Shown in pieces: positions 22,353-25,065 of a DNA stretch of 64,000 nucleotides (position 1 is the stretch's first letter; each line of letters opens with the position of its first letter). The notes under the pieces were generated by a model that saw only the letters and a program-made list of their open reading frames with translations, was not told the DNA's origin and did not search any database. The stretch is from Escherichia coli (GTDB lineage Bacteria; Pseudomonadota; Gammaproteobacteria; Enterobacterales; Enterobacteriaceae): NCBI RefSeq assembly GCF_003018115.1, contig NZ_CP027457.1; one strand, written 5' to 3'. The translations under genes and the position numbers were made by a program.

Positions 22353-22724
22353 ATGAATAAGATAATAGTTGATCTTGACGGTACTTTAACTGAGGAAGAT
22401 ACAAATGATTATACTAAAGTTAAACCAAAACTAAAAGTTGTTAAAAAATTGTATGAATTTAAAAAAATGGGATTCAGTATTGTAATAATGACAGCAAGGA
22501 ATATGCGAACATTTGATGGTAATATTGGAAAGATTAATATACATACACTTCCTGTAATCATTGACTGGCTTAATGAAAATAATATCCCGTACGATGAAGT
22601 TATTGTGGGGAAGCCATGGTGCGGTAATAAGGGATTTTATGTTGATGATCGGGCACTAAGGCCTTCTGAATTTGCAAGATTAAATCTTCAAGAGATAAAC
22701 GAATTATTTGATAAGGATAAATAA
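22353..22724 (+). CDS. Small HAD-superfamily phosphatase (capsule-biosynthesis-phosphatase-like)
   Basis: ATG at 22353 (the ORF-track start at 22275 runs through the JUMPstart). 123 aa; HAD motif I DLDGTLT, motif II MTAR, distal K...YVDDR; first gene after ops. Confidence 0.75.
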   Translation: MNKIIVDLDGTLTEEDTNDYTKVKPKLKVVKKLYEFKKMGFSIVIMTARNMRTFDGNIGKINIHTLPVIIDWLNENNIPYDEVIVGKPWCGNKGFYVDDRALRPSEFARLNLQEINELFDKDK

Positions 22725-24313
22725 TGCTTTTAATACTATCGTCTGCGTATATTGATATTGATTTACAGTCTGAATTTGGTCGGTTGCCACCGAGCATGTT
22801 ACCGCTAGGAAATAAACGATTAGTTCAACATCAAAAAAAACTTCTTAACACGAATGAGTTGATGATAATCACTTTACCTAAATCATATAAAATATCAGAA
22901 TGGGACAGGAAGTGGTTAGATAATAATAATATAAAAATAGTCTTTGTTAATGATGGTGGGGCGCTTGGTGAATCGGTATTATATGCTATTGAATATATTA
23001 AAACATTAAACATTTCTGAACATCTCAGGATTTTGTATGGAGATACTTTGATTCTTTCAAATATAAAAGATGACTCAAATGTAATCGCTGTATCTAACTC
23101 TGAGGATAATTATAACTGGGCTAGAGTCGAAAATCAGAATGCATATATAAAAATATCCACCGAAAATGATGTGGACATTTTAGGAGGAGATATACTTTGT
23201 GGCTATTTTTCATTTAGTGATATAGATCTTCTTCGGGAGTGTTTGATTTCTAATAATTATAACTTTATTGAAGCCATAAAAAGTTACCATGCAAAAAGTT
23301 TTCTATTTGTTAGAAAAATTGATGAATGGTTGGATTTTGGTCATGTGAATACTTATTACAAGTCAAAGATGAAATATACAACGCAAAGAGCATTCAATGA
23401 GTTATATATTAATTCAGATTGGGTATGCAAATCTAGTCAGGATTATGAGAAGATTTTAGCTGAGGCGAACTGGTTTGAAAAAATACCACTGGAATTAAAA
23501 AAATATATACCACAGTACTTAGGTAAAGAGTCTAAAAATAATAAGAGTGCAAGTTATAAACTAGAATATTTGTGTCATACTGCACTAAATGAATTATATG
23601 TCTTTAGTGAATTACCGCTAACTGTATGGAAGTCAATATTGGAAAAATGCCTTGACTTCGTTCGAGAGAGTAAAAGTTATATACCATCTGATAAAGAACG
23701 ATTCTCAACAATTAATGAGTTATTGATTGACAAGACCAATGCTAGGCTTGTCTCTTTCTGTTCAGAAAAACAATTTTCTATTAATGATAAATGGGACTTT
23801 AAGGGGAAAAGGATTAGTGTCTCTGATATACTTGATGTAGCGGCTAAATATATCCCTAATGATAATAATCCATCTTTGATGCACGGAGACTTATGCTTTA
23901 GTAATATATTATTTGATTTTAGAGCAGGTAGAATTAAATTAATTGATCCTCGAGGATTATCTGTTGATAGAAATTATACAATTTATGGTTCATACTATTA
24001 TGATTTAGCTAAACTTAGTCATTCAATATTGGGAATGTATGATTGGATAGTGGCAGGCTATTGTGATGCGAACATCTGTGAACGAAAAATAGAATTGAGT
24101 TTTGTTAATGATAAAAAAATCGAAAATATAAAAAGTATTTTTATTGACATGATTACTGCACAATTCGATATTACTCTAAATGAATTGTACGCAATGCAAA
24201 TTTATCTATTCTTATCAATGTTACCACTCCATTCAGATGATGTGCAACGGCAAAAAGCATTGTTCGCAAATGTCTTTAGATTATATGAACTTTTACAGGA
24301 GATTGAAAAATGA
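22724..24313 (+). CDS. Bifunctional-looking protein: N-terminal nucleotidyltransferase-like domain fused to C-terminal APH/choline-kinase-type kinase
   Basis: 529 aa; TAATG overlap with upstream gene. N-terminal half: GRLPPSMLPLGNKRLV, LGESVLYAI, EWLDFGHVNTYY (sugar-NTase-like). C-terminal half: HGDLCFSNILFD catalytic loop, KLIDPRG, GSYYYDLAKL, as in APH(3')/ChoK kinases. Confidence 0.7.
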   Translation: MLLILSSAYIDIDLQSEFGRLPPSMLPLGNKRLVQHQKKLLNTNELMIITLPKSYKISEWDRKWLDNNNIKIVFVNDGGALGESVLYAIEYIKTLNISEHLRILYGDTLILSNIKDDSNVIAVSNSEDNYNWARVENQNAYIKISTENDVDILGGDILCGYFSFSDIDLLRECLISNNYNFIEAIKSYHAKSFLFVRKIDEWLDFGHVNTYYKSKMKYTTQRAFNELYINSDWVCKSSQDYEKILAEANWFEKIPLELKKYIPQYLGKESKNNKSASYKLEYLCHTALNELYVFSELPLTVWKSILEKCLDFVRESKSYIPSDKERFSTINELLIDKTNARLVSFCSEKQFSINDKWDFKGKRISVSDILDVAAKYIPNDNNPSLMHGDLCFSNILFDFRAGRIKLIDPRGLSVDRNYTIYGSYYYDLAKLSHSILGMYDWIVAGYCDANICERKIELSFVNDKKIENIKSIFIDMITAQFDITLNELYAMQIYLFLSMLPLHSDDVQRQKALFANVFRLYELLQEIEK

Positions 24314-25065
24314 TCGTTATACCAATGGCTGGTATGAGTTCTCGATTTCGGAATGCAGGCTATAAAAAGCCGAAATATATGCTAAAAGCTCATGGTATCA
24401 CTCTGTTCTCTCATTCTGTTTCTAGCTTTAAAAGTTATTTTAATAATGAGGTTTTTATCTTTATTGTAAAAGATATTGACGGAAGTGAATTTGTTAAGAC
24501 TGAAGTGAAAAAACTCGGAATTTTGCATTATCATATTATTTTGTTAGAGCAGACAACTCGAGGTCAAGCTGAATCAGTATATAATGGATTGAAACAACTC
24601 CAAGAAAAAATAATGATCAGTCCAACCGAGTCTTTAACTATTTTTAATATTGATACTATAAGATGTAATTTTATGTATCCAAAACTTCATGAAAGAGGTG
24701 ATGGTTATCTTGAGGTTTTTTCAGGAGAAGGGGATAATTGGTCATTTGTGAAACCTGTTAATAATGAGTCAACATTAGTAATAGAAACAGCTGAAAAAAA
24801 ACCAATATCAAAATTATGCTGTACTGGGTTGTATTATTTCTCTAGACTCCAGTATTTTTTCGAAGCTTATGATTTATATATTTTAACACCCAAAGATAGT
24901 TGGGATAAAGGGGAGCTTTATGTAGCTCCGTTATATAATATTCTGATCGCCCAAAAGAAAGAAATACACTACCACAAAATAAATGTAGGTGATGTGTTTT
25001 TTGCTGGTGTTCCCAAGGAATATGAAGATTTCTGTAAGATAGATTATGAATCTTTTGTTGGGTAG
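24310..25065 (+). CDS. Nucleotidyltransferase (sugar/alcohol-phosphate NTP-transferase fold)
   Basis: 251 aa; ATGA overlap with upstream gene; MIVIPMAGMSSRF (GxGxRF-type), KKPKYML, TRGQAES, C-terminal DVFFAGVPKEYEDF. Confidence 0.7.
   Translation: MIVIPMAGMSSRFRNAGYKKPKYMLKAHGITLFSHSVSSFKSYFNNEVFIFIVKDIDGSEFVKTEVKKLGILHYHIILLEQTTRGQAESVYNGLKQLQEKIMISPTESLTIFNIDTIRCNFMYPKLHERGDGYLEVFSGEGDNWSFVKPVNNESTLVIETAEKKPISKLCCTGLYYFSRLQYFFEAYDLYILTPKDSWDKGELYVAPLYNILIAQKKEIHYHKINVGDVFFAGVPKEYEDFCKIDYESFVG

Follow-up and report, generated by a model that had tools for sequence, protein, structure and literature searches.

The O-antigen locus of an Escherichia coli strain (NCBI RefSeq assembly GCF_003018115.1, contig NZ_CP027457.1), contained in the stretch of 64,000 nucleotides analysed here (the window), opens with three overlapping genes. 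They encode a 123-aa phosphatase of the haloacid dehalogenase (HAD) type, a 529-aa fusion of a nucleotidyltransferase (NTase)-like domain with a kinase domain, and a separate 251-aa NTase. We consider it probable that this trio is a self-contained pathway that activates D-fructofuranose, so that it can be added as a side branch to the polysaccharide of this Wzx/Wzy locus. The trio is a bacterial counterpart of a phage cassette for arabinose activation. Genetic work on the E. coli K4 capsule (kfoE) has already covered the cassette; new is the recognition of the present locus as a further kfoE-type cassette. D-fructofuranose is the most likely product of the trio, the experimental case coming from K4 only.

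More tentatively, we propose that the trio represents a widespread, biochemically undescribed route to nucleoside diphosphate (NDP)-D-fructofuranose via fructose-2,6-bisphosphate (Fru-2,6-P2), a compound otherwise known as a eukaryotic regulator; that KfoE is an anomeric kinase with a pseudo-NTase domain; and that the serotyping antigens of O20/O137 type and O78 bear unreported, acid-labile fructofuranose that is lost in mild-acid work-up. Taken together, these are a possible, rather speculative extension of the assignment. O78 is a major serogroup of enterotoxigenic (ETEC) and avian pathogenic E. coli (APEC). Fructofuranose decorates the K4 capsule, which is relevant to chondroitin production, and the Campylobacter jejuni HS:1 capsule. 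With the trio assigned and linked to a phage pathway whose phosphatase has a solved structure, the question of the fructose donor is reduced to a three-enzyme reconstitution with defined predicted intermediates, and two likely misnomers would be corrected, namely 'fructosyltransferase' for KfoE and 'GT2' (glycosyltransferase family 2) for the NTase.

Proteins encoded by the three genes

The HAD protein scores 196.8 bits against the EcbF-BcbF model TIGR01689 (cut-off 162; E 1e-58), with residues 1-123 on profile positions 1-123 of 126. It is a full, capless member of the EcbF/BcbF 'capsule biosynthesis phosphatase' family, which agrees with the kinship to Pasteurella capsule phosphatases that the original prediction, made from the DNA letters alone, had pointed out. 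HAD motifs I-IV (D7-L-D9-G-T11, T47, K87 and D98-D99) are invariant in 21 homologs and conserved in 79; DLDGT, TARNM, GKPWCG and DD are kept across about 80 diverse homologs. When the PDB was searched by sequence at E<=1, the matches were limited to 1xpj from Vibrio cholerae (E 2e-56, 63% identity), 9iqw (E 1e-9, about 30% identity), GmhB and unrelated proteins. The PDB title of 9iqw is 'phage HY126 encoded D-arabinose 1,5-diphosphate phosphatase AfhF'. Foldseek with the HAD model placed 9iqw directly after 1xpj, followed by HisB-N and GmhB; the score against the GmhB model TIGR00213 was 12.5 bits (cut-off 149.6). Weak matches to the HAD domains of polynucleotide kinase/phosphatases were also seen. 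We propose that the protein is the distal phosphatase of a sugar bisphosphate, converting Fru-2,6-P2 to fructose-2-phosphate (Fru-2-P).

No match to the 529-aa protein was found by PDB sequence search. Its AlphaFold model (pLDDT 81.5) was compared by Foldseek: the N-terminal half resembles sugar-1-phosphate NTases (RmlA, GMPPA/B, 2xme, 4evw) and the C-terminal half APH(3') kinases (E ~1e-7), the same two-domain architecture that had been read from the sequence before. The N-terminal domain matches the family of the 251-aa NTase in hhalign (probability 77%, E 2e-5). In the alignment with this paralog it has neither the G-loop nor its Arg, carries PPS in place of the PK lysine and has no counterpart of EK, so that the earlier statement that the canonical NTase loop is missing holds; GDT and WLDFGH are invariant. 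Judged by this alignment, the domain appears to be a degenerate paralog of the 251-aa NTase. Probably it is not catalytic but serves to bind a substrate or product or as a docking site for the active NTase; it might also be regulatory in the manner of GMPPA.

The kinase domain shows an invariant Lys-Glu pair (K236/K243, E247), the catalytic loop H387-G-D389...N394 and the Mg-binding Asp of D408-P-R-G; the signatures HGDxCFSN, IDPRG and YDxAKL are kept across about 80 diverse homologs. With 18.9 bits it stays under the Pfam cut-off for APH (PF01636, 23.2), and it is the modelled fold that suggests a divergent member of the APH family. Its proposed role is that of an anomeric (O-2) kinase acting on fructose-6-phosphate (Fru-6-P).

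The 251-aa protein matches the structure 4evw, an 'NDP-sugar pyrophosphorylase' of V. cholerae RC9 (E 5e-83). The motifs MAGMSSRF (MAGxSSRF), KKPKYML, TRGQAE, FNIDT and AEKKP are conserved in 75 homologs; NTP_transf_3, IspD and RmlA-long models (Pfam/NCBIfam) gave weak matches, all under their cut-offs. The protein keeps every hallmark of an RmlA/GalU-type sugar-1-phosphate NTase, and we propose that it forms NDP-fructofuranose from Fru-2-P and a nucleoside triphosphate (NTP). The RefSeq label 'glycosyltransferase family 2' is in our opinion wrong and a likely misnomer. The motifs quoted in the original prediction are all present and conserved across about 80 diverse homologs. It had also named degenerate kinase or NTase motifs on modelling as a reason for doubt: those of the kinase domain and of the 251-aa NTase proved intact, and the N-terminal domain of the 529-aa protein is degenerate.

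The K4 capsule and further E. coli loci with the trio

Related cassettes turned up in 129 E. coli genomes when DNA was searched at low stringency. One lies in a kps locus that its 686-aa GT2, the K4 chondroitin synthase (PDB 2z86, 1455 bits), identifies as that of K4. Exactly three open reading frames (ORFs) stand there between those corresponding to kfoD and kfoF, and the trio is 63% (HAD), 44% (fusion; 530 aa, E 6e-146) and 50% (NTase) identical to them in the same order. Since there are exactly three, kfoE must be one of them and by its size the 522-aa fusion, an identification that we infer from gene order and size. In K4, deletion of kfoE leads to non-fructosylated chondroitin, i.e. the fructose branch on glucuronic acid (GlcA) is lost. 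The K4 region thus encodes counterparts of all three proteins in an identical order, again with starts and stops that overlap, and both loci are RfaH/ops-type polysaccharide operons of E. coli; they differ in that the K4 capsule is of the ABC-transporter (kps) kind and its acceptor is GlcA, whereas the present locus is a Wzx/Wzy O-antigen locus. The view that the module is unassigned and unlike known systems can therefore no longer be kept. According to a patent, removal of kfoD, the HAD ORF, kfoE and the NTase ORF is said to give unfructosylated chondroitin.

KfoE is called a 'fructosyltransferase' in the K4 literature, a name that comes from knock-outs. That a KfoE-type protein is itself the fructosyltransferase, acting through a GT-A-like N-terminal domain with the other two proteins as accessories, seems very unlikely to us. 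NTase and GT-A folds are related, RefSeq labels the 251-aa paralog GT2, and no dedicated transferase is evident in the present locus. A knock-out, however, cannot separate a gene for donor synthesis from a gene for the transferase, and the N-terminal domain is strongly conserved though the acceptors should differ (GlcA in K4, presumably fructose in O92 and core sugars in Vibrio). Moreover, the phage homolog has a canonical NTase loop, and the WavE-type proteins that co-occur with the trio are better transferase candidates. The fold analysis of the model does not favour the name, which is likely a misnomer.

Further E. coli loci carry the trio. An O92-family O-locus (6005-12033 of the locus) and an ET76-type locus (8047-17099) consist of it and of wzm/wzt, a GT2 gene, a WavE gene and a few genes without assignment. 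O92 has a fructan homopolymer as its polysaccharide, assembled by the ABC-transporter pathway, and we recognised no further gene for sugar activation in the O92-family locus. In the O92-family assembly the fusion gene and a glycosyltransferase gene are broken by frameshifts, probably sequencing errors. In a strain of ST69 O15:H18 the trio stands in a kps locus with galactosyltransferase-like, large glycerophosphotransferase-type and acyltransferase genes and with kpsM and kpsT split. K52 is a galactose-phosphate polymer with fructofuranose and O-acyl groups, a composition that these genes fit, and this locus is probably K52. K52 is listed among the rearranged clusters. Finally, in ETEC H10407 the O78 locus combines the trio and a WavE gene (5667-6626 and 8870-11597 of the locus) with manCB, three glycosyltransferase genes, wzy and wzx. 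The published four-sugar O78 repeat presumably needs neither the trio nor WavE, and an acid-labile fructofuranose branch may have been overlooked in it.

Across these loci (K4, K52-like, O78 and O92-like), which differ in their acceptors, the HAD protein is 52-63% and the NTase 44-50% identical to that of the trio. Each of the three trio-bearing kps loci encodes a KpsC-like protein (Capsule_synth region), namely KfoB, an 829-aa 'acyltransferase' and a 1157-aa multidomain protein, and beside the gene of the last one lies that of a 456-aa protein (7861-9231), which is remotely WavE-like (hhalign probability 82%). KfoB and the 829-aa, 1157-aa and 456-aa proteins are candidate ketofuranosyl transferases.

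The phage cassette for arabinose activation

In T-even-like phages the HAD gene adjoins a gene for a protein of about 557 aa and one for arabinose-5-phosphate isomerase. The ~557-aa protein joins a canonical NTase loop (GAGLATRL...PK) to the kinase signature of the 529-aa protein, HGDxxFSN...IDPRG...YDxAK, and the same signature is found in g053 of phage phiR1-RT, again with an arabinose-5-phosphate isomerase gene adjacent. A protein of Enterococcus phage 9183 aligns with the 529-aa protein over its full length (24% identity, E 7e-39), shows AAGRGTRM...PK where the bacterial proteins are degenerate, and is encoded after a HAD gene. The N-terminal domain of the phage homolog matches LicC, the CTP:phosphocholine cytidylyltransferase, at E 3.8e-6.

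The phage cassette (HY126 AfhF; RB69-type ORF052c/ORF051c) thus shares with the trio a homologous HAD protein (29-30% identity), a homologous fusion and the adjacency of the two genes. It shares the logic as well: a sugar 5- or 6-phosphate becomes the 1(2),5(6)-bisphosphate, then the 1(2)-phosphate and then the NDP-sugar. In phages the fusion has an intact NTase loop and there is no separate NTase, whereas the bacterial trio combines a degenerate N-terminal domain with a separate NTase. The phage sugar is D-arabinose, supplied through the phage isomerase, and the E. coli locus has no isomerase gene. The arabinose of the phages is attached to hydroxymethylcytosine in DNA, not to a polysaccharide. 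By sequence the trio would work like the phage cassette without being a member of the AfhF system; this homology, with a HAD protein deposited as a D-arabinose-1,5-diphosphate phosphatase, is a second respect in which the module resembles a known system.

D-fructose is D-arabino-hex-2-ulose, and Fru-2,6-P2 in its furanose form is therefore the hydroxymethyl homolog of arabinofuranose-1,5-bisphosphate. An alternative is that the trio of the present locus activates another sugar, either D-arabinofuranose from arabinose-5-phosphate or a 2-ketofuranose such as sorbose, xylulose or psicose. We regard it as fairly unlikely. D-arabinose-1,5-diphosphate is the substrate of the sole enzyme in the HAD family that has been given a name, arabinose-5-phosphate is always present in E. 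coli as precursor of 3-deoxy-D-manno-oct-2-ulosonic acid (Kdo), and identity to the K4 proteins is just 44-63%. The trio of C. jejuni GP013, flanked by an extra NTase gene and a C-methyltransferase-like gene, also suggests other products. But the architecture of the trio is common to the loci of K4 and O92 type, whose glycans contain fructose, and to the probable K52 locus, whereas the phage cassettes are about 24-30% identical and have an intact fused NTase, so that this architecture is not shared with them. In addition, an arabinose-containing E. coli O antigen is absent from the pentoses listed in a review.

The phage HAD proteins (4004-4369 and 4495-4839 of two phage loci; PHROG 1238) are called 'phosphoheptose isomerase' in RefSeq and PHROGs, which looks like a propagated misannotation, given the PDB name of the HY126 ortholog. 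Synechococcus phage S-SKS1 (2540-4651 of the locus) encodes a stand-alone 320-aa homolog of the kinase domain and a HAD protein beside a transaldolase and a nucleotide-sugar epimerase, which suggests that cyanophages employ the pair of kinase and HAD protein on other sugar phosphates as well.

Proposed pathway

In the pathway to D-fructofuranose that we favour, the substrate at this locus, the sequence of reactions, the passage through a bisphosphate and the nucleotide are all inferred. The kinase domain of the 529-aa protein would phosphorylate Fru-6-P at O-2 with ATP, giving fructofuranose-2,6-bisphosphate; the HAD protein would remove the 6-phosphate, leaving fructofuranose-2-phosphate; the 251-aa NTase would convert this with an NTP to NDP-fructofuranose; and a locus-specific glycosyltransferase would use the donor to add the fructofuranose branch. 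The need for both a kinase and a phosphatase is understandable only when the starting sugar carries its phosphate at the 'wrong' end, as with heptose, and no isomerase would be required since Fru-6-P is abundant. This pathway would also explain why the three proteins stay 36-63% identical to those of the trio in E. coli loci with differing acceptors. The logic of kinase, phosphatase and NTase set out in the original prediction is hereby retained; it had left the substrate unnamed, for which fructose is now proposed.

The pathways to NDP-heptose (HldE or HddA, GmhB, HldE-C or HddC) proceed likewise from a sugar 7-phosphate via the 1,7-bisphosphate and the 1-phosphate to the NDP-sugar, and GmhB is a small HAD protein and a distant structural neighbour of the trio's phosphatase (Foldseek E ~2e-3). 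The heptose kinases have a ribokinase-like or GHMP fold, in contrast to the APH-like fold in the trio; the sugar is different, and the locus has no isomerase gene. In the ribofuranosyltransferases of gPRT-PRP type (Klebsiella pneumoniae O4/O7, Bcs3 of Haemophilus influenzae type b) a furanose is likewise drawn from a sugar phosphate of central metabolism and a HAD domain strips the distal phosphate. Kinase and NTase are both absent from that system, which uses phosphoribosyl pyrophosphate (PRPP) as donor and in which the HAD domain acts after transfer. No gPRT-like gene was found in the O-antigen locus, where the HAD protein is stand-alone with NTase and kinase folds as neighbours. A reading as a ribofuranose/PRPP pathway, prompted by the galactose-ribofuranose (Gal-Ribf) polysaccharide of O20, was rejected: that structure does not fit the locus, Gal-Ribf belongs to a KpO4-like cluster, a gPRT is missing, and no ribofuranosyltransferase was among the PDB sequence matches of the HAD protein at E<=1.

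The gPRT-PRP precedent, in which a furanose is added and then dephosphorylated, raises a different order of steps for the same sugar: the NTase would act on Fru-2,6-P2 to give NDP-fructofuranose-6-phosphate, fructofuranose-6-phosphate would be transferred, and the HAD protein would strip the 6-phosphate on the polymer, as the PRP domain does. The capless, 123-aa HAD protein is of the open-site type common for large substrates, and its weak matches to polynucleotide kinase/phosphatases point the same way. We nevertheless think this order unlikely: the closest characterised relative is named for a free sugar bisphosphate, GmhB and HisB-N are also small-molecule enzymes, the HAD protein stays 52-63% identical in E. 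coli loci with very different acceptors, and its PDB sequence search at E<=1 contains no PRP domain of a ribofuranosyltransferase.

AmgK/MurU and LicA/LicC, too, pair a kinase of the APH/choline-kinase fold with an enzyme of the NTase fold. Their substrates are unphosphorylated, no phosphatase stands between kinase and NTase (MupP acts earlier), and there is no sequence-level relationship to the trio beyond the fold. It is highly improbable that the trio activates a non-sugar phospho-substituent of the choline-, ethanolamine- or polyol-phosphate type, as LicA/LicC do, even though the kinase domain has that fold and the phage N-terminal domain matches LicC. Such a route needs no phosphatase, Pfam found no LicD-type or phosphotransferase gene in the locus, the K4 phenotype is a loss of fructose and not of a phospho-substituent, and the 251-aa protein bears the motifs of a sugar-1-phosphate NTase.

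Several points weigh against a fructofuranose pathway in the present locus. The equation of kfoE with the 522-aa ORF is drawn from gene order and size. The link from this locus to fructose is made through 36-63% identity to the cassettes of K4, of O92-like loci and of the probable K52 locus, and specificity could differ at such distances. Fructofuranose of C. jejuni HS:1 is added with HS1.08, and the 11-gene HS:1 locus is without the trio, so that either fructofuranose can also be made without the trio or the trio is located in another part of that genome. HS1.08 as a fused trio was considered and found unsupported, the top 120 of a search with the C. jejuni homolog being only about 440-660 aa long and none 849 aa. 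For fructose 'activation and transfer' in C. jejuni, a 2025 paper cites only genetics. In the open-access literature we found neither biochemistry of any bacterial member of the cassette nor a paper defining the activated fructose donor, the chemistry of which may be published elsewhere.

The locus itself adds to these objections. It encodes four glycosyltransferase activities and no WavE-like or KfoD-like protein; comparison of WavE, KfoD, KfoB and other partners with the proteins of the O20 locus by BLAST, phmmer and hhalign gave no match. One gene of the operon must use the product of the trio, or else the transferase gene lies outside it. According to a review, the galF-gnd locus is at odds with the disaccharide published for O20, and the Gal-Ribf polysaccharide and serology of O20ab have been attributed to a separate KpO4-like locus. 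Whether the O137 gene cluster equals that of O20 is disputed in the literature.

Distribution of the cassette

The 529-aa fusion protein has thousands of homologs. At E<=1e-30 they form 884 clusters at 50% identity, and the best matches listed are nearly all full-length, about 500-570 aa. Co-occurrence, which the original prediction had suggested surveying, is close to complete: among 80 species-level loci the HAD gene lies next to the fusion gene in 78 and the NTase gene in 79, nearly always in the order HAD, fusion, NTase. Hosts are Gamma-, Beta- and Alphaproteobacteria, Bacteroidota and Campylobacter; the genera include Vibrio, Photobacterium, Aeromonas, Shewanella, Marinobacter, Psychromonas and Variovorax. 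On the proposed assignment, the trio would allow glycans that bear fructose to be recognised from sequence in hundreds of species.

The gene cluster for the lipopolysaccharide (LPS) core is the site of the trio in many Vibrionaceae and other marine Gammaproteobacteria, with genes for heptosyltransferase, WaaA, Kdo kinase, O-antigen ligase and lipid A acyltransferase around it; its place is between waaA and wavE in Vibrio mimicus and many marine genera. Of 76 loci, 45 have a gene of the WavE family (PF07507), which in 27 comes directly after the trio; this makes WavE-type proteins candidate transferases in loci other than the present one. The V. cholerae LPS core contains fructose, and V. cholerae is the source of both solved orthologs, 1xpj and 4evw. 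Glycans of H. influenzae type e and Psychromonas arctica also contain fructofuranose.

The cluster of C. jejuni fusion proteins has 2143 member sequences. In the capsule locus of C. jejuni GP013, next to kpsC (4042-8599), a second NTase paralog (PF00483) precedes the trio and a C-methyltransferase-like gene (PF13489 + PF08484) follows it; the sugar of the trio may be further modified there. In eukprot, a eukaryotic data set, one protein is 100% identical to the E. coli 529-aa protein over 91% of its length, most likely due to bacterial contamination of the data set.

Genetic context in the window

The window shows the standard E. coli arrangement of colanic-acid genes, galF, an AT-rich O-antigen locus (GC about 30%) and then gnd, ugd, wzz and the his operon. 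The O-antigen locus has counterparts of 99.5-100% identity in five complete E. coli genomes, of which one is labelled O20:H12. In that strain RefSeq names wzx and wzy 'O20/O137 family'; the serogroup check by wzx/wzy that had been recommended led to this name. Pfam and RefSeq annotation revealed no genes of rml/man/fnl/vio type or other conventional NDP-sugar genes in the O-antigen locus; the trio is the sole precursor-activation module of this locus, just as the original prediction had held. The positions of the features are given in Table 1.

Table 1. Positions of the trio, its domains and associated features (window coordinates unless stated otherwise)
Feature	Position	Strand	Remarks
ops element GGCGGTAG	22305..22312	+	in JUMPstart-like sequence, 41 bp upstream of first gene; read directly
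HAD phosphatase gene	22353..22724	+	123 aa
NTase-like/kinase fusion gene	22724..24313	+	529 aa
Predicted NTase-fold domain, N-terminal, residues ~1-205	22724..23338	+	Foldseek, hhalign
Predicted APH/ePK-like kinase domain, C-terminal, residues ~226-529	23399..24313	+	Foldseek, invariant motifs
Sugar-1-phosphate NTase gene	24310..25065	+	251 aa
wzy, wzx, GT61-like, GT25, GT4 and PssD/PssE (Alg14/Alg13-like) genes	25226..31414	+	same operon; Pfam, RefSeq annotation of 99.5%-identical locus in an O20:H12 strain
KpsC-like proteins of trio-bearing kps loci	5084-6724; 10603-13092; 4368-7841		coordinates within the three respective loci

The three ORFs of the trio are intact and overlapping. The translational coupling described earlier was seen at both junctions, as TAATG at 22720-22726 and as ATGA at 24310-24313. 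In a pattern search the ops octamer occurs 3 times in the window against 1.2 copies expected by chance, and at least 3 copies were present in 11 of 100 shuffles. By itself the octamer is weak evidence and not significant; its position between galF and the first gene of the O-locus gives it meaning. A mechanical ORF call puts the start of the HAD gene at ATG 22275, and the additional stretch, 22275-22352, overlaps the ops element. The start at 22353 is backed by homologs (1xpj) and by RefSeq annotation.

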